Assembly: GCA_024137785.1 (NCBI GenBank)
Contig: JAHRHZ010000043.1
Location: 27,041,729 to 27,105,728, forward strand
Length of the DNA stretch: 64,000 nucleotides
From: Ginglymostoma cirratum
Lineage: Eukaryota
Direction: 5' to 3'
The notes under the pieces are model-generated. The model was not told the origin of the DNA and ran no database searches. It worked only from the letters and a program-made list of their open reading frames with translations. This document shows, piece after piece, positions 1 to 55,274 of the stretch. Every line of letters starts with the position of its first letter. Position 1 is the first letter of the stretch. The position numbers and the translations under genes are program-made.

Positions 1-357
1 TCTCACCTATCCCCTCCTCCCACCTCAAGCCCCACCCCCATCTCCTATCTACTAACATCATCCCGCCCCCTTGACCTGTCCGTCCTCCCTGGACTGACCT
101 ATCTCCTCCCTACCCCCCTACCTACACTCACCTTTACTGGCTCCATTCCCGCCTCTTCGACTTGTCTGCCTCCTCTCCACCTATCCTCTCCTCTATCCAT
201 CCTCTATCTGCCTCCCCCTCTCTCCCTATTTATTTCAGAACCCTCTTCCCCTCCTCCATTTCTGATGAAGGGTCTAGGCCTGAAACGTCAAGCTTTCCTG
301 CTCCTATGCTGCTGCTTGGCCTGCTGCGTTCATCCAGCCCCACACCTTGTTATCTCC
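1..357 (+). mobile_element. Penelope-like element (PLE) 3' end / pseudo-LTR fragment with hammerhead-like core, in the last intron of WDR18
   Basis: CT-rich segment, then CTGATGAAGGGTCTAGGCCTGAAACGTC (262-289) and tail GCTGCTTGGCCTGCTGCGTTCATCCAGC...TTGTTATCTC; near-identical copies at 9828-10120(-), 14260-14548, 23362-23459 and 32814-32913. Confidence 0.7.
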
Positions 358-6485: not shown

Positions 6486-6712
6486 GGGGCTCTTTGTGGT
6501 GGTAATGTATGGTCCTTTAAGCTAGGAGGCCCAGGTTTGAGTCCCACCTGTTCCAGGGTATATAATATCGATTAGAAAATATCTACAACAGAATTGGGGG
6601 CTCTTGTGGTGCAAGAGTAGTGCACCTATCTCTGAGCTAGGAGGCTTGGGTTCAAGACCCACTTGCTCCAGATGTAATAACATCTCTGAACAGGTTGATC
6701 AGAAAAATAGCT
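6486..6712 (+). mobile_element. Tandem pair of short tRNA-derived SINE units
   Basis: Two ~110 bp units starting GGGGCTCT(T)TGTGGTG at 6486 and 6597, each with AGCTAGGAGGC and a B-box-like GGTTTGAGTCCC / GGTTCAAGACCC. Confidence 0.55.
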
Positions 6713-8699: not shown

Positions 8700-9445
8700 G
8701 ACATAGAATCAATGAATGTTACACCCTGGAGGGAGGCCATTCTGTCCTCTTTGTCTGCGCCAGCTCTTTGGTGAAGCTATCTAATTCACCTTACTTCTAG
8801 ATTTTCTCTGCCTCTCGGTGCCCTTTGTCTGTCACCTTGTATCCGACTTTTTGGATGCTGATCTACTACTGAATTCAGTTTCTTTTTATATACGCTGTCA
8901 AAAATTTTATGATTTTGAACACCTGTATCAAGTACCCTCTTGACCTTATCTTTTAAATAGAACAATTCCAGCTTCTCCAACTAAATTCCCTTAGCCCTCC
9001 CAAGTTCCATTCTGATAAACCTCTTCATGGCCTTGCAATTTGTCTTCAAAGGCCACACGCACAATTTGGCAGAATAATTAATCTGACGCTTAACCTTAAA
9101 AGAAAGTCCTAGAGTCTTAGAGCTATACAGCATAGAGACAGACCCTTCAGTCCAATTCGTCCATGCCAACCAGATATCCTAATTTAATCTAGTAAATCTG
9201 GAATATTTAGCATATCTTCCTTGCTTTTATGTTCCATAATAAATACCATACATCCCACATGTTTGTTATGCCTTCTCAACTGATCCTGCCACCTTCAAGC
9301 ATTTCTATTTGTACATCTCAAGGTCCCAATGTTCTTGCATATCCTTGAAAATGAGACCATTCAGCTTGCATTGCTACTCACCATATTTCCTACCAAAGTG
9401 TATCACTTCACATTTTCTGTATTAAATTTCATCTGCCACATTTCA
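8700..9445 (-). mobile_element. Decayed CR1 LINE 3' portion, with a second CR1 tail at about 9110-9195
   Basis: Minus-strand ORF MEKLELFYLK...; reverse-complement similarity to the CR1 RT C-terminus (WQMKFNTEKCEVIHFG at 9390-9440). Confidence 0.65.
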
Positions 9446-9827
9446 TCACACTAAGAAAACCTTTTATTAACAACAAGGTGCTGTGTCCAGGAGTGCTGTA
9501 CCTGAAAAAGATGAAGGAAGCAAATTCAACAATAACATTCAAGGAGAACTTGTTGAACCTGAAGGTTCAAAAAAAATTCCAGAGCTATAGGAGAAAAGGT
9601 AGGAAGGAGGATTAATTTAAATAGCTTCACCAAAGAGCTAGTACAGACTACACTCTCCTGAAGTCTGCATTATCTGTATCATTATTTTACCACATTTCTA
9701 AGTTTGAATTCAGATGCAGCTTTTGAAATTATATCTTGTCTACCCACATGCAATTCATTAGTATTTATTAAAAACAGCAATGACTCTACTACTGACCATT
9801 GATAGCAGAATTGTATACTTGGCTATA

Positions 9828-13514: not shown

Positions 13515-16500
13515 TGGATGGAGTGCTGGCTGCAAAGAGTAAGCAGCTGAGAGTTGCGGTAAGTATGAGAGTTTCAGGAAGTCAGGGAGGGGGGCCTTGC
13601 TGTGTCTTGTTGTCCTTGCCCTAATTCCACAGGTCCACTGGGGACAGAAGCAGACCCGATATTACATTCAGAAAATGAGTGAGACCAATGCGAGCGGTTG
13701 ATTAGCAATTAAGCTCTGGCGGATATTTCCAAACTGTTATTTTGTAAGTCTTTGTTTAAGTAAGGGTATGGACTTATTTGGTTCATTTATATATTTTTAT
13801 CAAAGTCTTCCAAAGTTTTTAATCTTTAAAGGATTCAGTCAAAAAAAGCTGGTTGTTAATGAGGCGAAGGTAGCAGGCAGTGCAGTGGTATACTCCTCCT
13901 GTCAGATTTGGAAGATTAAGGAGCAGTCGAGTGTCCCTCGTGATTACATCTACAGGAAGTGTGTCTGGCTGGAGCTTCTCTCAGACTACATGGATCAATT
14001 GGAATGGCAGCTGGGTGCACTGAGGAGCAAAGATTGTGATAGATAGTAGCTTTAGGGAGATGGTCACACCGCAGATTCGGTCAAGTTGATAGGTGACCAC
14101 CAGGAGAGGTAGGCAGGTAGTGCAGGAGTGTCCTGTGGCTATCCCCCTCTCAAACAAGTATACCAGTTTGGAGATAGTAGGAACTGCAGATACTGGAGAA
14201 TCTGAGATAACAAGGTGTAGAGCTGGATGAACACAGCAGGGATTCTGTTTTGGTTGTTATTGCTAACCTCATCCCGCCCCCTTGACCTGTCTGTCCTCCC
14301 TGGACTGACCTATCTCCTCCCTAACTCCCCACCTACACTCACCTTTACTGGCTCCATCCCCACCTCTTTGACCTGTCTGTCTCCTCTCCACCTATCTTCT
14401 CCTCTATCCATCTTCTATTCGCCTCCCCCTCTCTCCCTATTTATTTCAGAACCCCCTTCCCCTCCCCCATTTCTGAAAAAGGGTCTAGGCCTGAAACGTC
14501 AGCCTTCCTCCTGCTCTGATGCTGTGTTCATCCAGCTCTACACCTTGTTATACCAGTTTGGATACTGTTTTGGGGGAGGGCCTCTCAGGGAAAATTATCC
14601 TTAGCAGCCAGATCTGTAGCATCATGACTGGCTCTGTTGTAAATCAGGTTATGGCAAAGTCCAAGCAAATGTGCTATTGGACCCTGTGGGCATTTCAGTG
14701 GCTGTGAGTGAGACTCCAGGATGGTGTGTTGCCTCCTTGGTGCCAGGGGTCAAGAACAGCATAGAGCAGTTGCAACAAATTCTCAGAGGGGAGTACGAGC
14801 AGCCAGAGGTCATTGTACACATTGGTATCAATGACACAGGTAGAAAAAGAGATGAGGTCCTGCAGAGTGAATATAGGGAGTTGGCAGGACATTAAAAATC
14901 AGGACTTAAGGACAGTAATCTCTGTATTACTCCCAGTGCCATGTGCTAGTGAAACTAGGAATAGGAAGACAAAGCATAATGAATGTGTGGCTGAGGATCT
15001 GGTGCAGGGGGCAGGGATTCAGATTTTTGGATCATAGGGATCTCTCCTAGGAGCTGAGGTGACCTGTACAAGAGGGATGAGTTGCACCTGAACTGCAAGG
15101 AGACCAATATCCTGGCAGGGAGATTTACTAGAGCTACTTGGGAAGATTGAAACTAGTCTGGCAGGGGGTTGGGACCCTAAGCAGTAGTGACACAAGAGAG
15201 AACATTGAGGCTGGTACAGAAGTTAAAGAGAGCAAGTTAAATAAACAAGGCAGGCAAGAGCATGATGGGGAACGAGGAAAGACTGAAGAATTAAACTGCA
15301 TTTATTTCAATGCAAGAGGCCTGACAGGTAAGGCAGATGAACTCAGGGTATGGATGGGTATATGGGATTGAGATAGCTATTACAGAAACATGGCTGAGGG
15401 AGGAACAAGACTGGCAACTCAATGTTCTGGGGAAATAGATGCATTGGGAAGGACAGAAGGGGAGGCAGAGAGGAAGGGAAGTGGTGTTTTTGATTAGGAA
15501 AAACATCTTGGCAGTACACAGAGAGGATATTCCTGAAGGATGCTCCCGTGAAGCTATATGGGTGGAACTGAGAAATAAGAAGGGGTGATCACTTTGATGG
15601 GATTATACTACAGCACCATTCCCCCCCAATAGTCAGGGGGAAATTGAGGAGCAAATATGTAGGGAGATCACAGATAACTGTAAGAATAATAGGTTTGTAA
15701 TAGTAAGGGATTTTAACTTCCCAAACGTAGACTGGGACTACCATAGTGTTAAGGGCTTGGATGGGGAGAATTTGTTAAGTGCATTCAGGAAAAATTTCTC
15801 AATCAATATGTAGGTGGCCCTACTAGAGAAGGGGCAAAACTCAGCCCCCACTTGGGAAATAAGGCAGGGCAGGTGACTGAGGTGTTAGAGGGGGAGCACT
15901 TTGGGACCAGTGACCATAATTCCATTAGTTTTAAAATACTTATGGAAAAGGATAGGCCTGGTCCACAAGATAAAGTTCTAAATTGCGGTAAGGCCAGTTT
16001 GGATGGTATTAGACAGGAACTTTCAAAAGTCGACTGGGGGAGGAACATCTGGAAAGTGGGAGGATTTCAAAAGGAGATAAGGAGAGTTCAGGGTCAGCAA
16101 GGTTTCTGTTAGTGTGAAGGGCAAGGCTGGCAGGAGTAGAGAACACTGAAGACTAGAGATATTGAGGTTCTGATCAAGAAAAAGAAGGAGGCATATGTCA
16201 GGTGTAGGCAGCTAGGATCAAGTGAGTCCCTTGAGGAGGATGGGGGTATAGGAGAACATTTAAGAGGGAAATCAGGAAGGCAAAAGGGGGACATGGATAG
16301 CTTTAGCAGATAAGTTAAAAGGAGAATCTAAAGAGATTCTACAAGTATACTAAGGGCAAAAGAGTAACTGGGAAGAGAACAGCATCCCTTAAAGATCTAT
16401 AAGGTCATCTATGTGTGGAGCCATAGGAGGTGGCTGAGATCCTAAACATATATTTTTTGTCAGTATTTAGCTTGGAGAAAGAAGTAGAAGCTAGGGAACT

Positions 16501-17745: not shown

Positions 17746-17974
17746 AATACAATTGCTAAAAGGTCTTTCTCAGTCTCTGCATTTCTCATCTGTACAGCTG
17801 CCAACACCCATGATGAAAACAAGACTGGTTGTCTATTCTGCATCAATGCTGCTGGTTGTGCTGCTTTTCAATTCCATATCCCCTCTGCTGTAAGAGCCAC
17901 AGAATCAGAGCTTAGTCATTACTGAGCTCATCTTACTCAGTTCTACATGAGGACTCTTAGTCAATTAAAGCTTA

Positions 17975-18096
17975 CCATATAATTCCATATATTTATATGA
18001 ATTTTTATTACTGAGTTCACAAGTACTGCTTCTGAGTTCTTATAATGCTTTGTGAACTCAGAATAAAAATTCATTAAATTATATGGAATTATACGG
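17975..18096. mobile_element. Palindromic MITE-like element with TA flanks (Tc1/mariner-pogo type)
   Basis: ~48 bp inverted arms CCATATAATTCCATATA...CTGAGTTCACAA / TTGTGAACTCAG...TATATGGAATTATACGG; TA at 17973-74 and 18097-98. Confidence 0.65.
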
Positions 18097-20761
18097 TATG
18101 ATCCCTTGCTTTATGTTCCAATCTGACCACTACAAACCAGTGCTCTAATTGTGCCAATTCTGCTGCTGATATCTACACTCCATGAATCCTAACACTTAAA
18201 AAGATAAGCAATGCAGACGTCAGAAAACATGGAAGCAAAACTATTAGTTTCCTTCTTTCCTAAATGGTTTTGTTAGCATTACTAAATAATTAACTAAAGC
18301 TTTTAAATCACTTTATTACTATAAAGTGACTAAATAACATGTTCCAGACTCTCATAACATGGATGAGAAATCTTCATCTTCCAACAGCTCCATGACTAAG
18401 TATGCCTACTCAGCAGAACTAAAAGCTGTTTCAAGTCATGCATCAAACAAAGTAAGTACATTAAGATCCATAGGTAAGATGAACTCACATTTCGACACTG
18501 TTCCAAATCCTAATTGAAGTGCATTGTCATGTAGAGGACTATTTAAGGACTAGCACGCTGGTAATTTTTTTTTGAGCCGTTGCAGCCTCGATTCCAGCAG
18601 AATCTTTCTGAATCAAATCGCTGACTGATTTTGTTAAAGGTATTTACTCAAATATTGAATAAAAGTAGAATAACAAACGAATGCTGGAAATCTTGAAACC
18701 AAAACGCAAAAATGCTGATAATGATGAAATATCATTGACATGTTCTTTACTTTTCTACACAGAACTGCTGAGAATTTCCCGAGTTTGTTTTGTTTTTGTT
18801 TTATTTCTGATTTTGAAAAAGCAGCTATTTAATTTATCCAAAACTGTTGCAATTTAGGATCCACAGCAGGTGATGGTGTTCCCTTCATGTATCTGCTGCT
18901 TCTAGGTACTCAAGGCTGGATGGTCTTATAACTGAGGAAGAGTGCTGTTGAAGAGAATGTGTGGCATGTTGCAGGTTGGGACTATTGTTCCCCAAATCTC
19001 ATATGGCCATTCTGGATGCTGAGAATGGTGACAATGTTTGGTCTCACGTTTGTGTCAACATGTAGCTTCATCTTCAGTCAGTGGCAATGGTTCATCCTGT
19101 TACTTGATAATCTTGTTTAAATCTTTAAAACCAAAGAAGATTCAATAGTCTATTCCTCTCAGGTAACTGATTCATTGGGTCCAACCTCATTACAGGAGCA
19201 ATGATCAAACTATGCAGCATTTCCTTTACCACATCTCCTAAAACCACTCATAAATAATATGAAACATATTGGATTGGATCAAGTCTGATTTGCTATTCTC
19301 CTTACACTTGTCCTAACTCATCTTTAAACATCAATATTAAGCTGATAGTAAACACTCCTTGGTTAATCATATTCACCTTATTCCAGTTTTTATCCTTAAG
19401 TATAAGGAAGTTTTATGTTCAATTAAGCTTTCTTATCAAGCAAAAGGGCATATTTGTGCTGTCAATGAACTTATACTCCTGTTTACAATTCTAGTCACCA
19501 CATTGGAACAGAATTCATGCCTGTCCTCCAATGGACAGATTTATTTCACCATATGCTATAACAATAGATTAAATTGTTCCATGTTTGCAAGATTAAAATC
19601 TCGTGTTAACTTTTGGTATAGGTGAGGCTCAATCAACTTACATTGTGCACTTGTGACTATTTGAAATCTTACGTATCTTTAATAGAGAAGGGAGTCAGAC
19701 GTTATGGGAGCAGACAGAAAAGTGAAGTTGAGACCACAGCTAGATCAGCTATGGTCTTAATGAATGGCGGAACCAGCTTGACGGGCTGAATGCCCAATTT
19801 CTGCTCCTAATTCATACATCCTATGCTTGGCCTCAGTTTAAATGTAACATACTCCAATCATCTAAATCAAATTACTGAGTCTAGCATTTCAAGGGAGCAG
19901 CTCATCAACATCTTGTCAAGGGCGACTAGGGATGGGCAAAAAATGCTGGCCAGTGATGCCCATAATCCATGAATGAATTTTTTTTCAAAAAAGATGAAAC
20001 ACAATAGAACCTAGAATCTACCAGGAGTGCCAATATAAAATATCCAAGAGAAGAATAGGAATTGAAATAAACAATATTGTAAAGTAACTAAAACAGATCA
20101 TATCGAGACCTAATCTGCTATCACAAGTCCATATTTTCTTTACATTTGCTGTCAGTGAAAACTTTAGAGACAGGAATTTTACTCAACACCAGAAATCTGA
20201 CAAAATCACATTTCTAGAAAACCAGGCCAATTAGTATCTGACAGCAAAATCTTCTAATGTTTCAGGCAGGATCTTTTCATACAACAGTCCTGAAAAAGGT
20301 CAACTTTGATGACCAGCATGGAATCAGACTTTTACAATGCAGGAGGCAGCCATTCAAGAAGTTACAAAGTAGATTGACTTCATGGATGATAGTCTCTGGA
20401 TTGTGTTCTGTGCATCACAGACTGGACACGTTACAGAATTGAACATTAGAAAAATACAACGTGTGGCTGTAGGAATTATGTAGAAGGATTGACAGTGCTT
20501 GCGCTGTTGAACCAATTTTTGGAGCAAGTGAAGGTTATACAGAAGGAACAATATTCACTGAAGTAAAGCTGCATCAAAGTTCTCAAGAGAGAGCAATCAG
20601 GAGAATCTAATACAGCAAGGTCTGGGGTGACCAGGTTTAGAACTAAAGATGTATGATTAATAAAGCTTTTAGAATTAAAAGGTATATCTTAAATAAATTG
20701 TTAAATGGGGTAGGAGAATACTGGTAATCAATCAGTTGTACAGGATGTATATTCACACAAT

Positions 20762-21735: not shown

Positions 21736-23361
21736 GCTCAACATTGCAGCTTCTGTGTGACTTTAGAAGCTTTTACTATAGCGTTGCAAGCTCCAGGTCT
21801 CTTGCTACTTTATCAGATCATGTTCCCCAGGGGAGAGAGCCAGAAAATAAAAACAAAACCTGGAAAAGCACGTGACAGATCCCACAATTCTGATTCAGAT
21901 ACTGCTTTGTTGTGTTTAGTACGCACGTTGCATCACACTGTCAGTCTTGTGATAAGTGACTGACACGTTGGACAACACTATTCTAGTGGACCAGTAGAGA
22001 GTGAGTCAAGTTTGTCAGGGGGCAGACAATTCTGGATAAAGATAGAGGCTGGATGCAAAGCTGTCTCCACTGTTTGAGAATTGAATATTAAGGTTGGATT
22101 CTCACACAAAGCAACTCTCAACAGCTTTCTAATTCAAATTTTTAATAACATGTATCGATAATTTATGAGATGTTTTACAACAAGTGATCATCCGAAATTA
22201 TCACACAATAACACAAAATGCAGCGGGTAAACAATTGGCTTGCACAAATGACTGAACAGAAACCCTCGACAAATGTACTTCACTTTATCTCAAGGAGAAT
22301 GCCGTTGCTATCCCTTGTCAGTGTGCATGACCAAGGTTAGGTGAGACAGTTCTTGACATTCCTGAACAAAATACTGATCTCAGTGTCAAATAATCTGCCT
22401 TCCTTTTACTCTCTAGCCCAAGGGAAATTAGTGAATCGCTATTTATGTGAAATTGCTTTATATGCATGACTAATTCCAAAACTACTGCAGCTCTCATAAT
22501 TTATTGAATATCTTGTTTACTCCAATCTTTGTGGAGCAGATGAATAATGCATCTTAGTGTTTGTTTCCCTCCCATATCTCTCTAAAGTTGCTGATGTTTA
22601 ATCAGCAACAGTTGCACAGCCACACCTCTTTGGTTCCTAAACCAAGAGACAATTCTTCATATGTCAATCTCAGTAGTAAGAGTCTGTTCTTCTTTGGGAG
22701 TATCACCCAATTGTTTCCTCACCCATCTCCAACACTTTGTTTTTCAGCATGGATGGCTGCACTGTGGGTAAGAGTAGGAACCACAGCTGACGTCTGTTCA
22801 CTCTGATCTAAGAGGGAAGGCTGATTGGAGTGGCTCCCTCACCAAGAGCCCGAGGTAGAATCTGGGAGTTCATTGGTCTGTTTAGTTCTGTCTTAGACTT
22901 GATGTGCCTTTAACAAATGAGCACCCAGGATCTCTCAGAAAAGAAATCGCTTGCAACTGCATGATCTATTTTAACCCTCTTCCTGTAAAACCTTTCATGT
23001 GATTAAAGTGAAGAGAAATAATTGCTCAAATATGTCTCTCCTCTGGAGGGGTTTACTTGACATCTGTTAGTGCTGCTGTTGTGATTTCTGTTGTTTCTCT
23101 TTGTAAGGGTTCGGGCGATGCAGGAGCACTGCATTCATGTCAAGAGCTCTTCTTTAGAAAGTTGCAGTACTTGAGTTAATATGTTTTTCCAAGTGTCATT
23201 TTGGTTCAATGGAAAATACTCACTTCTTGAGGTGGGAATGTTTTAAGCCTTACTGTTTAACTCTTCCTTCAGTTATCTCCCTTAATATTGCTTTATTGCA
23301 AATTGCTTCTGTCTCAAACAGCTTGAGACACTTATTGAAATTCAACTGTTCTATCAAGTGA

Positions 23362-23459
23362 TTTTCTGAAGAAGGGTCCTGACCCGAAAAGTCAGCTTTC
23401 CTGCTGCTCTGATGCTGCCTGGCCTGCTGTGTTCCTCCAGCTCCACACTGTGTTATCTG
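23362..23459 (+). mobile_element. Short PLE pseudo-LTR fragment starting at the hammerhead-like core
   Basis: CTGAAGAAGGGTCCTGACCCGAAAAGTC (23366-23393) followed by the family tail. Confidence 0.7.
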
Positions 23460-29184: not shown

Positions 29185-30435
29185 TATAGGCTCGGTACTG
29201 CAGGGATCACCAATCCCAGCTTCACAATATGTATTAATGATTTAATTGAGGGAACTAAATACAATATCTCCAAATTTGCAGATGACACAAAGCTGGTTGT
29301 GAGGGTGAACTGGGAGGAGGATACAGAGATGTTTTAGTATGATTTGGTGAAGTTGAGTGAGTGAGCAAATGCATGGCAATTGCAGTATTATGTGGATGAA
29401 TGTAAGGTTATCTACGTTGGTAGCAAAAACAGGAAGGCAGATTATTATCTGAACAGCTATAAACTGAGAGAGGAGAATGTGCAACAAGTCCAGCATGTCC
29501 TTGTACACCAGTTACTGAAGGTAAGCATGCAGACAACAAAGGAGGTAAATGGTATGTTTCTCATGGTATATCTTCACATAGAGAGAAGATTTCAGTACAG
29601 GAGAAGGATGCCTTGCTGGAATTATACAGGGTCTTGGTGACACCACATCTGCAATATTGCAATAAAAAACAAAGAAATGTGGATGCTGGAAATCAGAAAT
29701 TGCTGGAAAAACTCAGCAGGCCTGAAAACATCTGTGGAGAGAAAGTGGAGTTAATATTTTGTATTCAGTGACCCTTCTTCAGAACATCTACAGAACCATT
29801 CTAAAGTTGGGTCACTGGACCCGAAACATTAACTCTGCTTTCTCTCTATGGATGCTGCCAGACCTGTTGAGTGTTTCCAGCAATTTCTGATTTTGTTTCT
29901 GCAATATTGTGTGCCGTTATGGTCTCCTTATCCAAGAAAGGATGTCCTTACTGCAGAAGGAGTGTAACGAAGGTTTATCGCACTGATTCCTGGGATGGTG
30001 AGATATAGGGGAAGGTCAAATCAGTTTGGATTATATTCACTGGAGTTCAGAAGAATGAGGGAGGATCTCACAGAATTCTAACAGGACAAGATAGGGTAGA
30101 TGCAGGAAGAATGTTTCCAATGGTGCAGGAGTCCAGAGTCAGGGGCCACGGTCTAAGGATATGCAACAAATTTTTTAAGACTGAGATGAGGAAAAATTTC
30201 TTCAACCAGAGAATGGTGAGCCTGTGGAATCGCTACCACAGAAAGCAGTTATAGAAGGCATTATATGATTTCAAGAAGGAGTTCAATATAGCTAAAGGGA
30301 TCAAAAGACATGAGAGAATAGCAGGAACAGGCTATCAAGTTGACTGATCAGCCATGATCATAATGAATAGTGGAACAGGCTTGAAGGGGCTGAATGATCT
30401 ACTGCTGCTCCTATTTTCTATGTTTCTGTGTTTCT
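29185..30435 (+). mobile_element. Decayed CR1 LINE 3' third (RT C-terminus plus tail)
   Basis: ISKFADDTKL and WQLQYYVDECKVIYVG motifs; tail TTTTCTATGTTTCTGTGTTTCTAAG. Confidence 0.85.
29660..29897. mobile_element. Fold-back PLE mini-element inserted in CR1 with 12 bp TSD
   Basis: TCTGCAATATTG at 29648-29659 and 29898-29909; inverted arms about 29690-29784 / 29799-29892, each with a partly decayed hammerhead-like core. Confidence 0.85.
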
Positions 30436-30932: not shown

Positions 30933-32662
30933 CCACTGAACCTGTTGTTCAAATTCAAGAGCTAAGGTTCCTCCATTTCTACCTGCTGGATCCTCATATT
31001 AACCTGACTTTCAGTCACATCTCCTGTCCTTGAGCATCGACCAACTCAAAAATCCTACCTGACTTCAGGGATGCGACCATCTCCTGGAACAACGTATCCA
31101 AGTCAATCTCCCTCCCTTGCCCCATAATTTCTGTGACTCTGACTTTGGCTCAGTAACTGTAAGCTGACATTGTTCAAGCTACAAGCATTTACTGCAGATA
31201 TGATTGTCTGGGACTGCAATACATTCTACAAATTCCATATGTTGTAGTCATGATACAGCACCATCCCTGACATGCCTGTTTATGTACTTCTACTGTCTCT
31301 TAACTCCAACCAAAAAGATTCTAACCCTTCCTGGACATCCTTTATCTGGCACGGTAGTATCATTAAAACCACCTTTCTTATTCCTTTTCTTCCTTATCTT
31401 TCCCTAACACCTTGTATCCAGGAATATTTAGTACACCACCCTGCCATTTTTTTAGGCCAGTTTTCTGCTATCACTGACTTATTGTGGCTACTTTAGCTTG
31501 CAGAAATCTTTTGTTTTGCCATTCTTTTTGTGTTTGCATACATGCATTTATTCTAAAACAAATTGTAATTAATGCTCTAATTGCACATTAAATGTTATAA
31601 CAAGATCACTGGATATAATCTCAAGTAGGACGCAAACTGTAAGGTGTCAAATATGGTTGATATGTGACAGGATCGAAGCCTCCAAAGAATTGATTGTTTT
31701 TATTAGTGCCAAACTCCTTGTTCTGCCTCATAAGCCAGTGATGTTAAGTGGCAGTGTACTTTCATTTTGTTAACTGCTCAGACTTTTCCCACACTGATAC
31801 AAACTCTACAAATCTTACCATGCCACAACTAAGACATTCTAAATTCTTGCCATTTACCACTTTCTGACATTTTATCACCTTTCTGCTTTATCTCATCCGC
31901 CAGGACAAAAATATAATTCTAAATAATACTTAAATAATCCTGGTAGTCTGTTATACGTAAAAGGCAAAAGGATTTAACATTGATTTGCAAATATATTCCT
32001 TTGCCAACTTCTGCTGAGTTATAGGTTCCACAGACATTGACCACACTGTCCTCCACTGAAGTGCTCATCTTTCATGTGGGAGCTAAGAGGGTGATGGTTC
32101 TCCCAAGGAAGCATCTCAGATCACTCCAATTCCAATTTCATTCAATTGTCACATGTACATATTTCTCTTGGTATGAATCGCTGGTCATGTAAAGACCACT
32201 TTTACTTTTGGACTGTGGACCAAAAATTGGAAAAGATACCACTTTAAACCAAGGAGACTGTGGAAGTAGATACTTGAAGTTTTTAGAACAGGTTTGTACT
32301 GGAACACAGTGTGAGTTAAAGCTACAGTATTGCCTTATTTGAGCAGTGGGGGAGAATACTAGACACAATGGTGCCACTTGTGTATTCTAGGAAATCCTGT
32401 TCACATTTGATTGGTTTTTAAATTGACAAAAAACTTTCCTGGTAGCTGCTGTCACTCAATATTTCCCTGTAAACAATTCTCATTACAAATTCCCTTGGCG
32501 AAAGGCAAAAGAGGAGGGGGAGAAAACATCTTTAAAGAAACTGACAGGACAGGTCCTCAGCCAGTGAATTCAAGACCGAGAATTGGTAGATCCAGAACCT
32601 TGCATCGTTGGTAAAGGATTGGAAGGATTCAAGAGAAAACCAAATAAAATAATTCATCTGTG

Positions 32663-32920
32663 ATTCAGAAAATTGTAAGAACTGCCAATGATGGAGTCAG
32701 AGACAACATAATATGGAGCTGGAGGAACACAGCAGCCCAGGCAGCATCAGAGGAGCCGGAATGTTGATGCTTTGGGTCAGGACCCTTCTTCAGAAATGGC
32801 CCCATTTCTTGCCCCATTTCTGATGAAGGGTCCCAACCCGAAACGCTAACTTTTCTGCTCCTTTGATGCTGCCTGGCCTGCTGTGTTCCTCCAGCTCTAT
32901 ACTGTGCTGTCTCATCTCTG
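32663..32920. mobile_element. Fold-back PLE mini-element with 11 bp TSD
   Basis: ATTCATCTGTG at 32652-32662 and 32921-32931; ~100 bp inverted arms 32700-32799 / 32814-32913; cores CTGATGA...GAAAC on + (32820-32844) and CTGAAGA on - (32787-32793). Confidence 0.85.
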
Positions 32921-34094
32921 ATTCATCTGTGTCTGTGATCTGAGATCTGTGCTTCTTTAACTTTTTTCCTTTCCTCACCCCTAACACTTGTATCATGTCT
33001 TGTCACTTTTTGTGTCTGTTTGTCTGTGTTCAGGAATTTTTTAAAAAAGATACAGTTTAAATTATAAAATTATTAAATTAACTAATCATTTTTCTTTTCC
33101 ATTGTCTAAAAACAGTTTGATGATAATTTTTAGTTGTTTTCTTGTTAATAAAAATCCTGTTTGTGCATATTCTTTTAACCTGATTTAAAGAGTTAGGTAA
33201 AATCAATAGTTGAATTAAATTTTAACATCTATGGCAACATCAGGAATAATGAGTCTTGACTTCTGGTCCATTACTGCAGACAGTCATGATCGTTATCTGC
33301 TTTGGGAACCATGTTTGATAGCCTCATCACCCAAATCCCAGGCCATTGATAGTCAAGCCACTTCTAACATTACATTAGGAGCTGAAGTTATTTTTTTTTT
33401 CCCAATTTTCTTGAACGTGACTGGAAAACTTCTAAAAACACAAAGTGTTTGAAAATTCCACACCACAGTTTTATGGTATTCCTGTTTTCAGGTCAGAAGG
33501 GCCATTGAACATTTTAAAGTTGTTATTTGGATTCAGTTGGTATTTATAAACAACATGTTTTCTAGTTAGCAAAGTTTGAGATTTGTTAGGGAGGGGGTAC
33601 GCAGAAGGAGCACTTTACAATGTTGACCTTTGTTTAAAATAAGGTTGATGGTGTACCCTCATTCGTTATTACTTCAGCTAAATGCACTAGCACGTAACTG
33701 CACCTTATGTGAATTACAGAATCTTCTCATCAAACAGTTCTAGTGAATTGCAATCGATCTACACATTTTATTCTTTGGACCTTTTGTGCAGAAAAATTAG
33801 GTTCGAGACTCCTGAAGAAAATGCTTGTGTCTGATCAATAATGCATTTACACATGGAATGGGATTTATTTCTTGAGGGTGAAATGCAGCAAAGTGAGGTG
33901 CATTTTTAAATCAAAACTCCAAGATGCCCAAGCTCTGAGGTAGCTTTTGTTCTCACATCTTCACACATTTTGCACAGACAAAAGCATCAAGTGGAGGAAG
34001 GAAACTTGGGTTGATTATCTATCCGACTGTCTGTAACATGAACATTCCTATTTGTTAAAGTCTGACAAGTACATGCTAATTGATAATTGATGAT

Positions 34095-40082: not shown

Positions 40083-41012
40083 ATGGCAATGGATGCAAGG
40101 GCAGTTGCATGCTCCTCTTGTAGGATGTGAGAGGTAAGGGTCACCACTTGTGTCCCTGCTGACTTCATCTGCGGGAAGTGCACCCAACTCCAGCTCCTTG
40201 GAAACAGTGTTAGGGAACTGGAGCTGGATGAACTTCGGATCATTCAGGAGGCTGAGGAGGTGATTGAGAGGAGTTACAGGGAGGTAGTCACACCTCAGGT
40301 ACAGAAAAAAAGTAGATGGGTTACAATCAGGGGACAGAAAGGGAACAGGCAGACAGTGCAGGGATCCCCTGTGACCGTTCCCCTCAATAACAGGTATACC
40401 GTTTTGGATTCTGTTGAGGGGGATGACTTACCAGGAGTAAGCCATGGGGTACAGGTCTCTGGCGCAGAGTCTGTCCCTGTTGCTCAGAAGGGAAGGGGGG
40501 AGAGGAGGAGAGCATTAGTCACTGGGGACTCCATAGTTAGGGGGACAGACAGGAGATTCTGCGGGAACGAGAGAGACTCGCAGTTGGTGTGTTGCCTCCC
40601 AGGTGCCAGGGTCCGTGATGTCTCGGATCGTGTTTTCAGGATCCTTAAGGGCGAGGGGGAGCAGCCCCAAGTCGTGGTCCACATAGGCACCAACGACATA
40701 GGTAGGAAAAGGGACGGAGATGTAAGGCAGAAATTCAAGGAGCTTCAGTGGAAGCTTAGAGCTAGAACAAACAGAGTTGTTATCTCTGGTTTGTTACCCG
40801 TGCCACATGCTAGCGAGGCGAGGAATAGGGAGAGAGAGCAGTTGAACACGTGGCTACAGGGATGGTGCAAGAGGGAGGGATTCAGATACCTGGATAATTG
40901 GAGCTCATTCTGGGGTAGGTGGGACCTCTACAAATGAATGGTCTGCACCTGAACCAGAGGGGTACTAGTATCCTTGGGGGGAAATTTGCTGATGCTCTTC
41001 GGGAGGGTTTAA
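40083..41012 (+). pseudogene. CR1 ORF1: Cys-rich zinc finger, coiled coil and SGNH/GDSL esterase domain (two premature stops)
   Basis: CSSCRM*...CGKCTQLQLL, GDSIVRG, CCLPGARV, HIGTNDI, LYK*(N)GLHLN. Confidence 0.85.
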
Positions 41013-41082
41013 ACTAGTTCAGCTGGGGGATGGGAACCTGACTTGTCGCTCCAGTGTACAGGAAGTTGAGAGTAGTGAGGTC

Positions 41083-43619
41083 ATGAATAAGGTTTCAAGG
41101 TCGCAGGAGTGTACCAGCAGGCAGGAAAGTGGTTTGAAGTGTGTCTACTTCAACACCAGGAGCATCCGGAATAAGGTGGGTGACCTTGCAGCATGGGTTA
41201 GTACCTGGGACTTTGATGTTGTGGCCATTTCGGAGACATGGATAGAGCAGGGACAGGAATGGATGCTGCAGGTTCCGGGGTTTAGGTGTTTCAGTAAGAT
41301 CAGGGAAGGTGGTAAAAGAGGGGGAGGTGTGGCATTGTTAGTCAAGGACAGTATTATGGTGGTAGATAGGACGTTTGATGAGGACTCGTCTACTGAGGTA
41401 GTATGGGCTGAGGTTAGAAACAGGAAAGGAGAGGTCACCCTGTTGGGAGTTTTCTATAGGCCTCCGAATAGTTCCAGGGATGTAGAGGAAAGGATAGCAA
41501 AGATGATTCTGGATAGGAGCGAAAGGAACAGGGTAGTTGTTATGGGGGACTTTAACTTTCCAAATATTGACTGGAAACACTATAGTTCAAGTACTTTAGA
41601 TGGGTCAGTTTTTGTCCAGTGTGTGCAGGAGGGTTTCCTGACACAGTATGTAGATAGGCCAACAAGAGGCGATGCCACATTGGATTTGGTACTGGGTAAT
41701 GAACCAGGCCAGGTGTTAGATTTGAAGGTAGGTGAGCACTTTGGTGATAGTGACCACAATTCGGTCATGTTTACTTTAGCGATGGAAAGGGATAGGTATA
41801 TACTGCAGGGCAAGAGTTATAGCTGGGGGAAAGGCAATTATGAGGCGATTAGGCAAGACTTAGGATGCATAGGATGGGGAAGGAAACTGGAGGGGCTGGG
41901 CACAATTGGAATGTGGAGCTTGTTCAAGGAACAGCTACTGCGTGTCCTTGATAAGTATGTACCTGTCAGGCAGGGAGGAAATGGTCGAGCGAGGGAACTG
42001 TGGCTTACTAAAGAAGTTGAATCTCTTGTCAAGAGGAAGAAGGAGGCTTATGTAAAGATGAAGGGCGCTTGAGAGTTACAAGTTAGCCAGGAAGGACCTA
42101 AAGAGAGAGCTAAGAAGAGCCAGGAGGGGACATGAGAAGTCTTTGGCAGGTAGGATCAAGGAAAATCCTAAAGCTTTCTATAGGTATGTCAGGAATAAAA
42201 GAATGACTAGAGTAAGATTAGGGCCAGTCAAGGACAGTAGTGGGAAGTTGTGCGTGGAGTCCGAAGAGATAGGAGAGGCGCTAAATGAGTATTTTTCATC
42301 AGTATTCACACATGAAAAAGACAGTGTTGTCGAGGAGAATACTGAGATACAGACTATTAGACGAGACAGGATTGAGGTTCATAAGGAGGAGGTGTTAGCA
42401 ATCCTGGAAAGTCTGAGAATAGATAAGTCCCCTGGGCCGGATGGGATCTATCCTAGGATTCTCTGGGAAGCTAAGGAGGAGATTGCAGAGCCTTTGGCTT
42501 TGATCTTTATGTCAGTTGGATGAGGGTAAAGCGGTTGATGTGGTGTATATGGATTTCAATAAAGCATTTGATAAGGTTCCCCATGGTAGGCTACTGCAGA
42601 AAATTCGGAGGCATGGGATTGAGGGTGATTTAACGGTTTGGATCAGAAATTGGCTAGCTGTAAGAAGACAGAGGGTGGTGGTTGATGGGAAATGTTAACC
42701 CTGGAGTTCAGTTATTAGTGGCGTACCGCAAGGATCTGTTTTGGGGCCACTGATGTTTGTCATTTTTATAAATGACCTGGATGAGGGCGTAGAAGGATGG
42801 GTTAGTAAATTTGCGGATGACACTAAAGTCGGTGGAGTTGTGGATAGTGCGGAAGGATGTTGCAGGTTACAGAGGGACATAGATAAGCTGCAGAGCTGGG
42901 CTGAGAGGTGGCAAATGGAGTTTAATGCGGAAAAGTGTGAGGTGATTCACTTTGGAAGGAGTAACAGGAATACAGAGTACTGGGCTAATGGTAAGATTCT
43001 TGGTAGTGTGGACGAGCAGAGAGATCTCGGTGTCCATGTGCATAGATCCCTGAAAGTTGCCACCCAGGTTGATAGGGTTGTTAAGAAGGCGTACGGTGTG
43101 TTAGGTTTTATTGGTGGAGGGATTGAGTTTCGGAGCCGTGAGGTCATGTTGCAGCTGTACAAAACTCTGGTGCGGCCGCACTTGGAGTATTGCATACAGT
43201 TCTGGTCACCACATTATAGGAAGGATGTGGAAGCATTGGAAAGGGTGCAGAGGAGATTTACCAGGATGTTGCCTGCTTTGGACGGAAGGTCTTATGAGGA
43301 AAGGCTGAGGGACTTGAGGCTACTTTCGTTAGAGAGAAGAAGGTTAAGAGGTGACTTAATAGAGACATACAAGATGATCAGAGGATTAGATAGGGTGGAC
43401 AGTGAGAGCCTTTTTCCTTGGATGGTGACGGCTAGTACAAGGGGACATAGCTTTAAGTTGAGGGGTGATAGATATAGGACAGATGTCAGAGGTAGATTCT
43501 TTACTGAGAGAGTAGTCAGGGCATGGAATGCCTTGCCTGCAGCAGTTGTCGACTCGCCAACTTTAAGGGCATTTAAATGGTCGTTGGATAAACATACGGA
43601 TGATAATGGAATAGTGTAG
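41083..43619 (+). pseudogene. CR1 ORF2: APE endonuclease and reverse transcriptase, disrupted
   Basis: ORFs 41083-42072 (ISETW, FYRPP, GDFN, SDHN), 42143-42523, 42516-42698 and 42741-43619 (KFADDTK); segment VVPLFKKG...IEFFE is missing at about 42514. Confidence 0.92.
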
Positions 43620-44744: not shown

Positions 44745-46085
44745 AGACAAAAATATAGAAAATGTTAGAAATTCTCAGTAGGTGTCAATGGAAAAATGAA
44801 AAGTTAGCACTGATGATCTTTCAGTTGAACTGGAAAAATATTGAGACAAGTTTAATTGAGTACAGAGAGAGAGAAATAGAGAGAGAAGCAAAGACCAAAA
44901 AAGAATGACCTGTGAAAAGGTGGAAGGCAGGACAGATTAAATGATAAAAGACAGTGATGGTGCAAGGCAAAAAGAGATAGACAGCAAAAAGATCAGAAGG
45001 TCGATCTGGAGGAGAATAAGGGAAAAGCAGACTCATTTTCAACAGCTACTGTCCAAACAAAAAAGAGGTTATGATCTGTAATTGATTAACTCATTGTTGA
45101 GTCCAAAGGCTGTTGAGTAATTAATTGAAAGTTGCAGTACTGTGATTAAGCTAAAATTGTTCTTTAGTGCAGAGGTGAAGCTGCAGTTATGTTTGTGGAC
45201 GGAAGAGTATTGTTCTTTAAAGCAGTTATCCAATCTGCTTTTGGTTTCCTCTTTGCATTGTGACCAACAACTGCTGGGGTCAAAATCCTGGAACTCCCTC
45301 CTTAAAAGCATTGTGGGTCTACTGACAGAAAATGGACTGCAATGATTCAAGAAGGCAATTTATCCCCATTTTCTCAGGATAAGTAAAGGTTGGGTAATAA
45401 ATGCTGACTCAGCCAATGATGCCCACATCCCATCGGTGAATTAAAAAGCAATTATTCCAAATTGGAGGGAAAGAATACAAATAAAACACTGTTTTGCATG
45501 GAAGGAGTATTTAAGATCCTGAGAATGGAGGTGAGAAGAGGGCTTGTGTTTGCAAGGGAAGTTGGTAAGGGAAGGGATGTTAGGATTGAAGATGAACCAA
45601 AATGTCCTGGAAGGAAGGGATCCTTAGAATGCTGAAAATGAAATGGACAAGAATATTATTTTGATAGTAGCCTCTCTGTCACTGATCTGTTCCAATCAAA
45701 CTAAATGAACAACACATCACCTTTCAATATTGGCACATCACAGATTCCAAAATAACTTTGACAATTTCAAATCAAAATCCATAATTTTCAGGTAGCAGCT
45801 GTTGGTGAAGATTCTGCTTTTGTCATTTATACGTCCTCTTGGCACATCTTTTAATCATTTGTTTGTTCCCTTAAAATCCCTTTTGGCCTAACACTATCAT
45901 CTCTTTCGTTATCTTACTTCAATTACTCTTATTGAAGATCTTCCCTTTTGTTTATTCCTTCCTTTCCTGTTTCTCTAATCTTTTTCCAGTTCTGATGAAA
46001 AGATCACAAAAAACCTGCTGTATGAATTATTTTCCTCTCTCAACGATACTGCCTGGCCTACTGAGTACTTCCAGCATTTTCTGCT
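44745..46085. mobile_element. Old, larger fold-back PLE (minus arm about 44745-45260, plus arm about 45740-46085) with a LINE tail inserted at 45267-45450
   Basis: Arms are loose reverse complements (AAAATGTTAGAAATTCTCAGTAGG / CCTACTGAGTACTTCCAGCATTTT); CAGTTCTGATGA at about 45987. Confidence 0.5.
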
Positions 46086-46089
46086 TTGG

Positions 46090-46840
46090 AGCTGTTGGTT
46101 GGTTCACCGAGCTGACTGGTTTTCATGCAAACGTTTGTCTCCCTTCTAGATGACATCATCAGTGTTGCGTAGCCTCCGTTGAAGCGCTGTTGTTCTGTCC
46201 TGCTCTGAATTTGTATGGTCTGCTTTGTCATGGTGGACAGTCTTGTTTCCGGTTTTGTACCATAGCGGTATGTAGATGGGGTCCATTTCAACATGTTTGT
46301 TAATTGCATCAGCGGCTGAAAACCAGGCCTCCAGGAATTCTCGTGCTTGTCTTTGTTTCGCTTGTCCTAGTACTGTAACTTTGTCCCAGTCACATTGATG
46401 CCCTTCTACGTCAGAGTGTACTGAAATGAGGGAGAGTGGTCATGCTGTTTTGCCGCGAGTTGGTGTTCATGTATCCTGGTGGCAAGTTTCCTACCCATCT
46501 GTCCTATGTAGTGTTTCTCGCTGCATGGTATTTTATATATCACATTTGACCTGCTCATTGTGGGTTTTCAACCACCAATGCAATTAACAAACATGTTGAA
46601 ATAGACCCCATCTACATTCCACTGCGGTACAAAACCGGAAACAAGACTGCCCGCCATGACAGACTGGTCCATATAAGTTCAGAGTGGGACAGAATACCAG
46701 CACTTCAACGCAGGCTACACAGCACTGAGATGCCACCTAGAAAGGAGATAAAATGTTTGCATGAAAACCAGTCAGTTCGGCAAACCAACCAATAAGTCCA
46801 ACCGCAACCCGAGCTACAGATCATCATTAAAACATTAAAT
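46090..46840. mobile_element. Penelope element remnant: GIY-YIG endonuclease fragment (- strand, about 46147-46560) with inverted pseudo-LTR copy
   Basis: Minus-strand translation NVIYKIPCSEKHYIGQMGRKLATRIHEH...DWDKVTVLGQAKQRQAREFLEAWFS; ~220 bp inverted arms 46092-46310 / 46578-46795. Confidence 0.9.
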
Positions 46841-48289
46841 TTTCTGGTTTTATTCCAGATTTCCAGAATTTTGTATTTGCATTATTTAATGGACTATGTC
46901 TGGAAAATAAATGCCTCCTGAGTAAATGTGTGCATTCAAGACTTGCGTTTTGGGTCCAATTTTTTTAATGTTCCTAGTATTGCTACTGTTCCTTTATACT
47001 CTCCTTTGAAATATGGGGCAATGAATTGAGTATGACACTTGAAGTGTGATAAATAACTGTGTTGGTCAGGAAATGTGTTCTACACCTACCATTTATATTA
47101 CAAATAGATGAGTACATCTTTCAGCAAAAAGGCAGATCTGCCTTCTCTATCGGACAAATAAGGCTTCAAGATCAAACAAGTCTCATTGTCCCTCCTTAAC
47201 TGTCCTCTGTGATCTTGAAAATCTGCCTCAGTTTTATAATGTAGATTATTTCTAATCCAAGAATCAAATCACAATTGAATTGAATATTGATGGGCCCTGA
47301 TCGGTCACAAAAGAGCTTGAATGGGAGATTCACAGCTGTTCTTTGTTAATATGTGACATTGCTACAATAATCAGTAAGTATGTTACAGTGCAGTAATGCC
47401 TGCTCATCAAGGTAAGGAATGTTATTGTTGGGATTTCAGAAACTGAGTGTCAGTAACATGCACAAACATATCAGGTTAAATAAACATGGTGTAAAACTCC
47501 TCCTCAATCACATCACCAGAATTTTTGCTACTTTATATTTTTACCTATGCTGATAGTCTATCTACTTAATTGCAGTCCATCACCATTGATATTATTCTGG
47601 TAAATCTGTGCATCCTCTACAAGGACTTGACACACTAATTACCACTACTTGTAAATGTCTGGCTCCCATCGATGAATACTAATCTTTTTCCTTAAGGTTA
47701 TTTGGCACTTGTATGTGACATGCCAAATTTTAACTCTCAGTACGTGACTAATGCTTGTGTGCTGCAATTCTTTATTCCATGTAGATCTGCTATAAAATTG
47801 CCAAAGGTATTTTTTTGATGTGCTATCTTTGAGGACAACTGCAGCATACCATATGATAAGCTTGTGGTTTTAAATGACAAAGTGTAATTGTTATTGAGTG
47901 AATATGAGATAATGTCAGGAAGCAGGTTTCTATTTCTTTCTCTTTAAGTTGTTTTGATAAGGACAATAATGTATACAGGCATTCTGATTCTTTGCATTCA
48001 ACGTGTTTTGATTTGCTGCAAGAAATGTGCTTCCCATATGACAATATTCTTTTGTTTAAACCAAAAGTGTGACATAGAAATGTGTCTGCCATATATATGC
48101 TGCAATTAACAAGAAGTGTCATGTAAGTATTTAATATTGCTGGGGGAAAAAAGGCATGCACTTTAAGTGTTCGTCTTGTGTTCATCAGAACAGATGCAAA
48201 AATGCCGGATGTCAAATGCAGCAACAACTTACACTGCATGGGAAAAGCATGCTGGCTCGTTGTCACATCACTTCTGATTTATCATGGCA

Positions 48290-48465
48290 TTGATTTGGAA
48301 ACCAATCAGAAGTGACTGGCCAAACAATCATTAGTCTTTGCACATGCATTTAAATTGTTACTCCCTTTGCAATTTGGCATTCTTGCATCTGTCCTGATAA
48401 ATTCAAAATGAAAAGCTTCAATAATATAGCTCTTTCTTCACCAATATTCAAGTTCTGTACTACCG
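48290..48465 (+). mobile_element. Probable PLE pseudo-LTR fragment, further family
   Basis: TGTC-CTGATAA-ATTCAAAAT-GAAAAGCTTC-AATA (48390-48423), a decayed hammerhead-like core with palindromic AAGCTT. Confidence 0.4.
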
Positions 48466-50729: not shown

Positions 50730-51115
50730 AGAGCCTCAGGATTCAGCATTGAGTTCAACAAGTTCAGAGCATGAACTCTGTTCTCCATTTTAATCATACC
50801 CTCTTCCAACTTCCCCACCCCCTCCCCTCTCTGTGTCTCTCCAACAGATTTGACCCATTTCCTACTATTCATACCTGTCATTACTACTTATTTTACATCT
50901 AGAGCACTCCTTGAAAACCCCCTTTGTCTTGCTCCAGGTACACTTACCATCTGTCTCACTCCCTCCTTCTCCCTGTCTGTCAACAGTATAAAAATCATCA
51001 TTTTCCAGTCCTTTTCAGTTCCAAGGAAGAGATATTGAACTTGAAACATTAGTTGTGTTTCTGTCTCCACAGATGCTGCCAGATCTGCTGAATTTCCCCA
51101 ACTCTTTCATCTTTT
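50730..51115 (+). mobile_element. PLE 3' fragment inserted in a decayed CR1/L2-group LINE (about 50330-51420)
   Basis: GCCTCAGGATTCAGCATTGAGTTCAACAAG...TTGAAACATTAG...CCACAGATGCTGCCAGATCTGCTGA; same tail as 29821-29890. Confidence 0.6.
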
Positions 51116-52490: not shown

Positions 52491-53592
52491 TTGATTTTTT
52501 AAAAAAAAAACAAAGATCTGGGGTTGCCTGCTTGATGGCTTGTAGTACGGCCGTCAAATACCTTTAGTAGAGAGACAGAGGGGAGCAGTTTCTCCCTTGG
52601 TGTCCCTGGTACCTGACGAGGAAGTAACGGGCCCGACTCTTTCGCTCAGCGCAACTTCAAAGAAGAAAGTGAACAGATCAAATATTCCTTCTCATCCACT
52701 TTTAAACTGGAGAGGTATTACAAAGAGACCAGCGCAGAAGCTGGAAGTGTGAAATAGCCGAATAGTCTGACAATGTTCAGCAGGTCTGACAGCCCCAAGG
52801 GAGAGAGTAAATCTTTGCGATTGACGACCATTTCGCGAAAATTCCAGTTCAAGGTCAGCAACTTGAAACCTCATCTCTGTTATTCTCTGCACGGATGCTG
52901 CCTGATGTGTTCCCAGCAATTTTTTTTGTTACATTTTAGACAAGGCAGACCTATTTTCGGGAAGGATTTCTGCAATGTTGGTTTTCCCAGGTGACTGAGC
53001 ACCCTGTGGTGTATTGCTATTTCCAATTAATTTTTAATCAACACCGAGGAAGCGATTAGATTCCAATCCATGATTTCACCCGAGGGCCCTGTGCTATCTG
53101 AGCCTTCTTGCTGCTATTTGAATTGCCAATAAATGCTTTTCAAATGGATTTATTCCCCTCGGCTAATGGGAACTAAATATTGTGCAAAACGGCTAATACA
53201 GTCTGTGTATCTGACAAACATTCCAGTCCCACCTCACACAGGCTCGCCACCCTATTTGCTGGGAAATAAATAACAGGACGGTTCCTTATCATTAGGACAA
53301 ATCATTTGAAGGGACACAGCCCATGCACCGTCCAGGCTGTAAGATGATGGATAAAAAAGGACACTGTGAGTGCGACAGGCTTAACAAACCTATAGAAGCA
53401 CAGACCTTTCCAGTAAACAAAGAGGCCATTCACCTTTCTTGTCTGTTCCAACCCTGAGCTAGAGTAATCCAAACCGAGGCGCACTTTCCCCATTGATCCC
53501 CTTCCATAGGAATATTCCCAAGGCACATGCTTCCAATATTAATTCGCCCACTGTCTATCTATATTACCCTGCGTTTGTCTTTCCTTCCCCTG

Positions 53593-54845: not shown

Positions 54846-55274
54846 ATGGAGTGCAGACAGCGCCTCTGGACCCTGCTCGGCTTCCTGCACGCTGTCCTCA
54901 GTCTGTGCCATTCTCACCCACAGCCGTGCCATATCCTGAACCGGATCGGACACACCGTGAGCCTGGGCACTGTGCTGCCCTCCCCCCGGAGAGCCCTCCT
55001 GCAACAAGCGCTGCTCGAAGGAGTGGAGGCGGCCTTAAGGGGCAACCTCCTACCCTACAACCTGAGCCTAGAGATGGTCAGCAGTCAGGGCTGGCAGCCC
55101 GACCCGCAGTCCCTCCTGCAATCCATCTGTCAGTCTGTCGTGGTCCGGGGAGTCGCGGCCGTTCTGGCATTCCCACAGTCTGCCGACCAACTGGTGCAGA
55201 TGGATTTTTTAGCATCTTTCCTGGAGATCCCTTTCATCAGTATCATGGAGCAAGGAGAGGGGCTGGCCACTGAG
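54846..55274 (+). CDS. GRIN3B: Glutamate receptor ionotropic NMDA 3B (GluN3B), first coding exon: signal peptide and start of amino-terminal domain
   Basis: Strong Kozak GCCATGG; hydrophobic signal peptide then HPQPCHILNRIGHTVSLG, LLPYNLSLE, DPQSLLQSICQSVVVRGVAAVLAFPQS, MDFLASFLEIPFISI (GluN3 motifs); 143 codons to phase-0 donor GAG|GTAGGT; 3B rather than 3A is inferred from the short exon and WDR18 adjacency. Confidence 0.88.

Follow-up and report, generated by a model that had tools for sequence, protein, structure and literature searches.

A head-to-head Penelope-like insertion with decayed hammerhead cores in an elasmobranch genome

The fold-back at 32.7 kb of the window (the entire 64-kb stretch of DNA analysed here, whose numbering is used throughout) is a real, old insertion of a Penelope-like element (PLE) with a layout already published for such elements, and it is not a retrozyme. 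It is probably a dead-on-arrival insertion of a Neptune-clade PLE, truncated on both sides, in an elasmobranch genome. One of the two readings offered by the original prediction, a stereotyped abortive Penelope integration, is supported: the insertion has a tail on one arm, a target-site duplication (TSD) and a link to a Neptune-type reverse transcriptase (RT), and its arrangement recurs in several subfamilies.

Anatomy of the focal insertion

Taken together, the inverted, 5'-truncated pseudo-LTR (pLTR), the one-sided tail of 32 bp and the TSD of 11 or 12 bp are features of PLE membership (Table 1). The two inverted arms, foreseen at about 100 bp each, are 100 bp long, 83% complementary and separated by 14 nt, a score that was reached in 0 of 500 shuffles. 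The insertion as a whole is nevertheless asymmetrical, with a 32-bp tail on the left and none on the right. At its centre, the duplicated spacer that had been described is present, the 11-mer GCCCCATTTCT occurring at 32799 and again at 32811.

The size of the insertion required revision. It had been put at 258 bp, bounded by an 11-bp TSD, and an exact 11-bp repeat pair does enclose 258 bp and is unique to these two sites within the 64-kb window. A 12-bp duplication with a single mismatch is the simpler register and gives an insertion of 246 bp within a short pre-existing repeat. This reading is preferred because it needs no filler, abuts the right arm and places the start of the tail where the alignment to the tail at 14.2 kb places it. 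The 11-bp register requires fillers of 5 and 7 nt, both of them target-like.

Table 1. Positions of the focal insertion, related PLE copies and neighbouring features in the window
Position	Strand	Feature	Basis
32652..32662	+	Left copy of exact 11-bp repeat; unit of the short pre-existing target repeat under the 12-bp reading	
32656..32667	+	Left TSD, preferred 12-bp register, 11/12 match	
32668..32699	-	32-bp PLE tail, left arm only	Alignment to 14.2-kb tail; protein match to N-termini of P0007/P0008 (whale shark)
32700..32799	-	Left arm, 5'-truncated family-A pLTR, sense on minus strand	
32766..32793	-	Minimal type I hammerhead core in decayed form; stem II and CUGANGA box preserved, AAAG in place of GAAA, CA in place of helix III CG	Read from sequence
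32800..32813	.	Central junction, 14 nt separating the arms; near-perfect palindrome with 11-12 nt tandem duplication (32799-32809, 32811-32821)	
32814..32913	+	Right arm, 5'-truncated pLTR without tail; same end as the tail-less copies at 226-356, 9827 and 23458	
32820..32847	+	Decayed minimal hammerhead core; both boxes kept, one stem II mismatch, cleavage-site GUC = GCU	
32914..32925	+	Right TSD, 12-bp register	
32921..32931	+	Right copy of exact 11-bp repeat	
1-356; 9827-about 10115; 14173-14548; 23360-23458; focal, 32.7 kb		Family-A copies	
29.7, 46.0, 51.0, 52.8 kb		Copies of the related family B	
14173..14548		Asymmetric inverted family-A insertion in CR1 LINE; tail and ~40-bp arm, 22-nt filler, ~290-bp tail-less arm, 14-bp TSD	
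23360..23458	+	Solo family-A arm, also starting 3-4 nt upstream of core	
29660..29898		Second fold-back, family B, in CR1 LINE; 95-bp arms, tail on left arm, 11-12 bp TSD	
46088..46838		Third PLE family, asymmetric inverted insertion within a family-B pLTR; ~475-bp tail-less arm, ~240-bp arm with tail, 8-12 bp TSD	
52766..52933		Probable old family-B fold-back, weakly supported; TSD not found	
40131-43619		Long CR1-type LINE; several open frames including endonuclease-like and RT parts	RT domain by Pfam
54846-55274		Exon, followed by short-unit repeat with assembly gap (10 N)	Match to NMDA receptor subunit 3A structures

Each arm contains one hammerhead-like core, so that the focal element has one core per strand, head-to-head, with no same-strand tandem. 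The pattern is present in decayed form in both focal arms and in other copies of the family. The positions that are altered here (the boxes, the cleavage site and the helix III pair) are needed for hammerhead activity, and both cores are, judged by their sequence, broken through the loss of invariant bases. An Rfam scan of the whole window returned no hammerhead, its sole match being a weak tRNA.

A rod holding one hammerhead core had been proposed for a transcript of either strand. The rod is confirmed by folding (-159.5 and -161.5 kcal/mol; z -17.0 and -15.9), with one core on each strand, and the proposal needs amendment in that both cores are decayed. The stability of the rod is a consequence of the inverted repeat and is no indication of function. 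The rod buries both cores: stem II pairing is 0.0 in the full RNA, as compared to 0.74-0.95 for four of the five pairs in the isolated arm (the fifth is also 0.0), and forcing stem II to form in the full focal RNA costs 20-23 kcal/mol. A viroid-like RNA has a working ribozyme in each polarity that refolds out of the rod; what is found here is a pair of broken cores and this energetic cost.

The arms differ by 17% (13 transitions, 4 transversions; K2P 0.20). Their identity to each other (83%) is no higher than their identity to the solo arm of 23.4 kb (83-84%), and wobble-preserving changes between the focal strands stand at 7:6 (P = 1.0). The divergence looks like neutral decay. Selection on a hairpin RNA was set aside on wobble counts of 7:6 and 8:6. 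A MITE was set aside as well, the arms being retroelement pLTR with a tail on one side. The focal arms do have two variants in common that are missing from the other four copies in the window.

Related insertions and the link to a reverse transcriptase

Four inverted, TSD-flanked PLE insertions lie in the window, at 32.7 (focal), 29.7, 14.2 and 46 kb. The second of these had been predicted at 29660-29897 and was recovered with a boundary one nucleotide away; its arms are 80% complementary and its TSD breaks a CR1 reading frame. Excision of the insert and one TSD copy at 29.7 and at 14.2 kb leaves sequence colinear with a longer copy of the LINE in the window, and both TSDs are thus genuine. 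The insertion at 14.2 kb is younger; its arms are identical over 32/32 nt, with the 22-nt filler at the junction between them. The insertion at 46 kb contains a frameshifted GIY-YIG-like coding remnant and hammerhead-like cores of its own. The arms at 23.4, 9.8, 51 and 52.8 kb yielded no TSD.

Two decayed copies had also been suggested. The one at 18680-18790 is not supported: 119/500 shuffles gave an arm-to-arm match as good, and a single homology comparison out of eight beat all shuffles, by one point. At 52770-52925, arm-to-arm complementarity fails in the same way (459/500 shuffles as good), and what survives is that the two halves match family B in opposite orientation, with 0/300 shuffles as good in seven of eight comparisons against family-B copies.

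Several observations concern the surroundings. A short coding stretch at 400-532 may resemble the C-terminus of WDR18, in which case the focal element is intergenic; the NMDA-receptor-3-type exon lies about 22 kb downstream of it. The LINE in the window is taken to be of CR1 type. Other self-complementary sequences include an element of about 245 bp at 48170-48412 (68%), unrelated to the PLE arms and with no clear TSD; an AT-rich fold-back at 17973-18098 (37-bp arms, 89% complementary), for which no TSD was found; and an inverted pair at 8753-8808 and 9591-9648, about 780 bp apart and 79% matched over 58 nt. A weak tRNA-like match at 6608-6670, sub-threshold in Rfam, is possibly the head of a SINE.

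The focal element itself has no ORF, and the connection of its pLTR to RT and GIY-YIG sequences runs through a whale-shark gene model, P0007, and its matches. An exhaustive protein search with the focal read-through frame, against a library that keeps one protein per 50% cluster, gave eight matches. Six are whale-shark gene models; the other two, the tick repeat protein P0003 and the unnamed repeat protein P0006, were discarded as low-complexity noise. Word-index protein searches produced one candidate for the focal read-through frame and 1439 for window positions 1-357, none of which scored. Pfam detected no domain in the 46-kb fragments, in the focal frame or in any of the six whale-shark models.

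P0007 reads through the family-A tail and arm in antisense and then into an RT fragment. This fragment has 230 relatives among 510 candidates, the best matches being elasmobranch proteins from Chiloscyllium, Stegostoma and Mobula. By these matches and by the six whale-shark models, the window looks elasmobranch. One match, P0071, comprises RVT_1, a CX4CxxC linker and GIY-YIG. A linker of this kind before a C-terminal GIY-YIG is the Neptune/Nematis pattern (CX2-5CxxC), which is common to both clades; we call the RT linked to family A Neptune-type by the linker and domain pattern of P0071 rather than by a tree. As the window contains no full-length family-A element, the family link depends on one gene model. 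P0007 may be spliced, and the link is backed by the hammerhead pattern and the tail. Both P0007 and P0008 have long arms of the focal subtype, and one of them adjoins RT.

At least two subtypes of family A, and family B as well, include fold-backs. In four of the six whale-shark models, an antisense family-A arm is followed by a sense one, which allows their junctions to be compared with the focal one. The two core cytosines are 26 nt apart in the focal element (14 nt once the duplication is discounted), 11 nt apart in P0004 and 17 in P0005; read by eye, the spacing is about 3 nt for P0009 and negative for P0010. All five family-A junctions differ, four of them having been back-read from proteins whose models may be spliced, and the query favours junctions near the core. 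Because the four whale-shark junctions differ from the focal one and from one another, no fixed unit is seen to amplify among these five. Stray shark contigs were also sought among bacterial and archaeal genomes by two motif scans, with 0 matches.

These comparisons bear on the second reading of the original prediction, a self-propagating class of hairpin elements, considered here as a retrozyme- or viroid-like unit that would undergo cleavage and circularisation before being reinserted in full. Retrozymes are head-to-tail tandems whose same-strand ribozymes release circles (PMC7229834; bioRxiv 10.64898/2026.07.22.740005). As in the non-LTR retrozymes of these sources, the focal element is non-coding, is related to a pLTR and contains a type I hammerhead. 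Unlike them, it is head-to-head with one broken core per strand, and it is for lack of same-strand tandem ribozymes that it is placed outside the group. A stable rod on both strands, a hammerhead-like core in each and the recurrence of the layout would all be in keeping with a self-propagating unit. Nevertheless, such a unit is extremely unlikely: the cores are neither in tandem nor intact and are buried at the folding cost given above, the wobble counts show no bias, the single minimal PLE hammerhead motif showed no cleavage as a monomer (PMC4209133), and a shared junction is absent from the small sample of five.

Origin of the inverted arms

In published PLEs, the pLTR is inverted, with a 31-bp tail on one arm, TSDs of 8-10 bp and palindromes at the junction (PMC3846280), or an inverted 5'-truncated copy is present with a tail of 30-40 bp, often at one end (PMC8557442). 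The focal element resembles the EN+ Neptune-clade examples of these papers in its head-to-head pLTR pieces, one-arm tail, short TSD, palindromic junction and minimal hammerhead. It differs from them in that its arms are only ~100 bp, the coding body is gone and the ends cluster at the ribozyme edge; its TSD of 11-12 bp is also longer than those of the rotifer examples (PMC3846280). Schistosoma has dual minimal hammerheads on opposite strands, about 100-700 bp apart, and scattered motifs related to truncated PLEs (PMC4209133). The focal cores are much closer, only 26 nt apart, and the text on the Schistosoma pairs (PMC4209133) describes them without a structure or mechanism. The origin of tandem and inverted PLE ends has been called undefined (PMC8557442).

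The favoured mechanism would likely involve: nicking of both target strands by the RT-endonuclease of the element, at positions that the TSD places 11-12 nt apart; priming of RT on PLE RNA by each nick, one from the tail end and the other from a tail-less start site; and joining of the two cDNA ends by end-joining, which would create the palindromic centre and the short duplication. The tail is found on one focal arm, and two primings would account for this. The arms would then have decayed independently, consistent with their transition-rich 17% divergence. The element would have no catalytic or replicative role now, and, if read through by chance, it would give a transcript in the form of a double-stranded hairpin.

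Biochemical precedent for the early steps comes from the Anolis Poseidon-clade PLE, PAc. Its protein nicks both strands in vitro and extends them, is predicted to be a dimer, inserts uncleaved RNA and uses two internal RT start sites that bound the tail (PMC11167929). These activities predict a TSD enclosing head-to-head cDNAs, one tailed and one tail-less, as seen here. On the favoured mechanism, the focal element would be like PAc in its two tail-bounding RT starts, in the nicking and extension of both strands and in its uncleaved ribozyme; it is unlike PAc in clade, and the account of PAc (PMC11167929) stops short of an inverted two-cDNA product. A caveat is that the in vitro support derives from a Poseidon element, while the focal element appears to be Neptune-type.

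A related process is L1 twin priming, in which both target nicks prime RT and yield an inversion inside the TSD, the two pieces coming from different parts of one RNA. In the PLE fold-back, by contrast, the two focal pieces cover the same sequence.

The asymmetric insertions at 14.2 and 46 kb are informative on this point. In both, the tail sits on the short arm, and upstream sequence is present in the long one. Because each arm contains sequence that is absent from the other, the arms are not DNA copies of one another, and their composition points to two primings on RNA.

The same PLE origin could also produce a fold-back from a single cDNA that folds back, primes itself and is copied into the second arm. 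Self-priming of this type has been proposed for PLEs (PMC3846280). The near-perfect focal palindrome, the equal length of the focal arms and their two common variants fit snap-back synthesis too and keep it as a rival; equal arms recur at 29.7 kb, and the identical arms of the young insertion at 14.2 kb are likewise in its favour. It cannot yield the insertions at 14.2 and 46 kb, with their arm-specific sequence. In addition, the two arms of P0004 carry residues of different family-A subtypes, which tentatively fits two templates, and a spliced model or gene conversion could explain this as well. Overall, self-priming is judged rather unlikely as the source of the focal element.

Long palindromes are unstable and are revised at the centre. 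A longer inverted-pLTR insertion, or two separate insertions, might therefore have been trimmed later by a central deletion, and the duplication at the focal centre would agree with such an event. It would leave unexplained why ends lie at the ribozyme edge across families and in the solo arm at 23.4 kb, and a single TSD encloses both focal arms, making this history very improbable.

Arm ends at the ribozyme edge

The end survey covered 13 arms at nine family-A and family-B loci in the window, with nhmmer matches at E 0.02-10 left out except for the left half at 52.8 kb. At four of the nine loci (23.4, 29.7, 32.7 and approximately 52.8 kb), arms end 2-9 nt upstream of the core. The remaining ends lie about 57 nt downstream of the core, or upstream of it by 110 to more than 258 nt. 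Under a uniform null, the P for this clustering lies between 6e-5 and 8e-3, for an interval that was picked after seeing the data. The clustered ends suggest the 5' end of a template or a strong RT pause.

Two other stops were considered. A stop at the hammerhead cleavage site was set aside, as the arms include the whole core. A stop at a splice acceptor fits the arms at 29.7 kb, which end at the AG of longer family-B copies, and does not fit family A. Pyrimidine tracts ending in AG at 45960-45990, 50990-51020 and 225-240 are candidate splice acceptors; in long family-B copies the candidate AG immediately precedes the hammerhead, and in family A it is found about 25 nt further upstream. These candidates resemble the Penelope intron of D. 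virilis, in which 46 nt separate the start site from the 75-nt intron that follows (PMC2377424); the end of that intron maps to hammerhead helix I (PMC4209133).

A template ending at this edge could be a dedicated short non-autonomous RNA of about 130-140 nt, running from the ribozyme 5' edge to the tail, which a Neptune RT would insert as a fold-back, forming a different junction at each insertion. In favour of such a source RNA, besides the four loci above, are certain subtype bases that are common to the short arms of 23.4 and 32.7 kb and missing from the long copies in the window. The long arms of P0007 and P0008, one of them adjoining RT, are nonetheless of the same subtype, and short arms are found in several subtypes and in family B. 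Moreover, the template requirement of the Anolis RT extends through ORF sequence up to +172, beyond its start sites at +111-118 (PMC11167929). A dedicated short RNA as the source of the focal element is thus doubtful, with little weight assigned to it.

The diversity of junctions does not exclude a short source RNA, since a short twin-primed template makes a new junction at every insertion. The test attached to the original prediction, in which shared junctions would indicate an amplifying unit and unique junctions independent events, has a gap here, as it is blind to such a template. A broader speculation, to which only slight probability is given, is that shark PLEs possess a short RNA or strong-stop cDNA, spanning the stretch between tail and ribozyme 5' edge, that is mobilised in trans and always lands as a fold-back with a fresh junction. 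Existing fold-back loci might perhaps feed the short RNA. If true, this would constitute a non-autonomous class in which the hairpin is rebuilt in each cycle, and its copies would document in the genome how PLE RT begins. A literature search, for which subscription papers, Repbase/Dfam and supplements were outside the scope, retrieved no description of shark fold-backs or of clustering at the ribozyme edge.

The focal element itself is minor, an old PLE fragment in a layout already described. Shark genomes seem to hold many such minimal products. The ends and tails of their arms, and the differences between paired arms, could serve to tell twin priming apart from snap-back synthesis and to show whether a fixed stop exists at the ribozyme edge.
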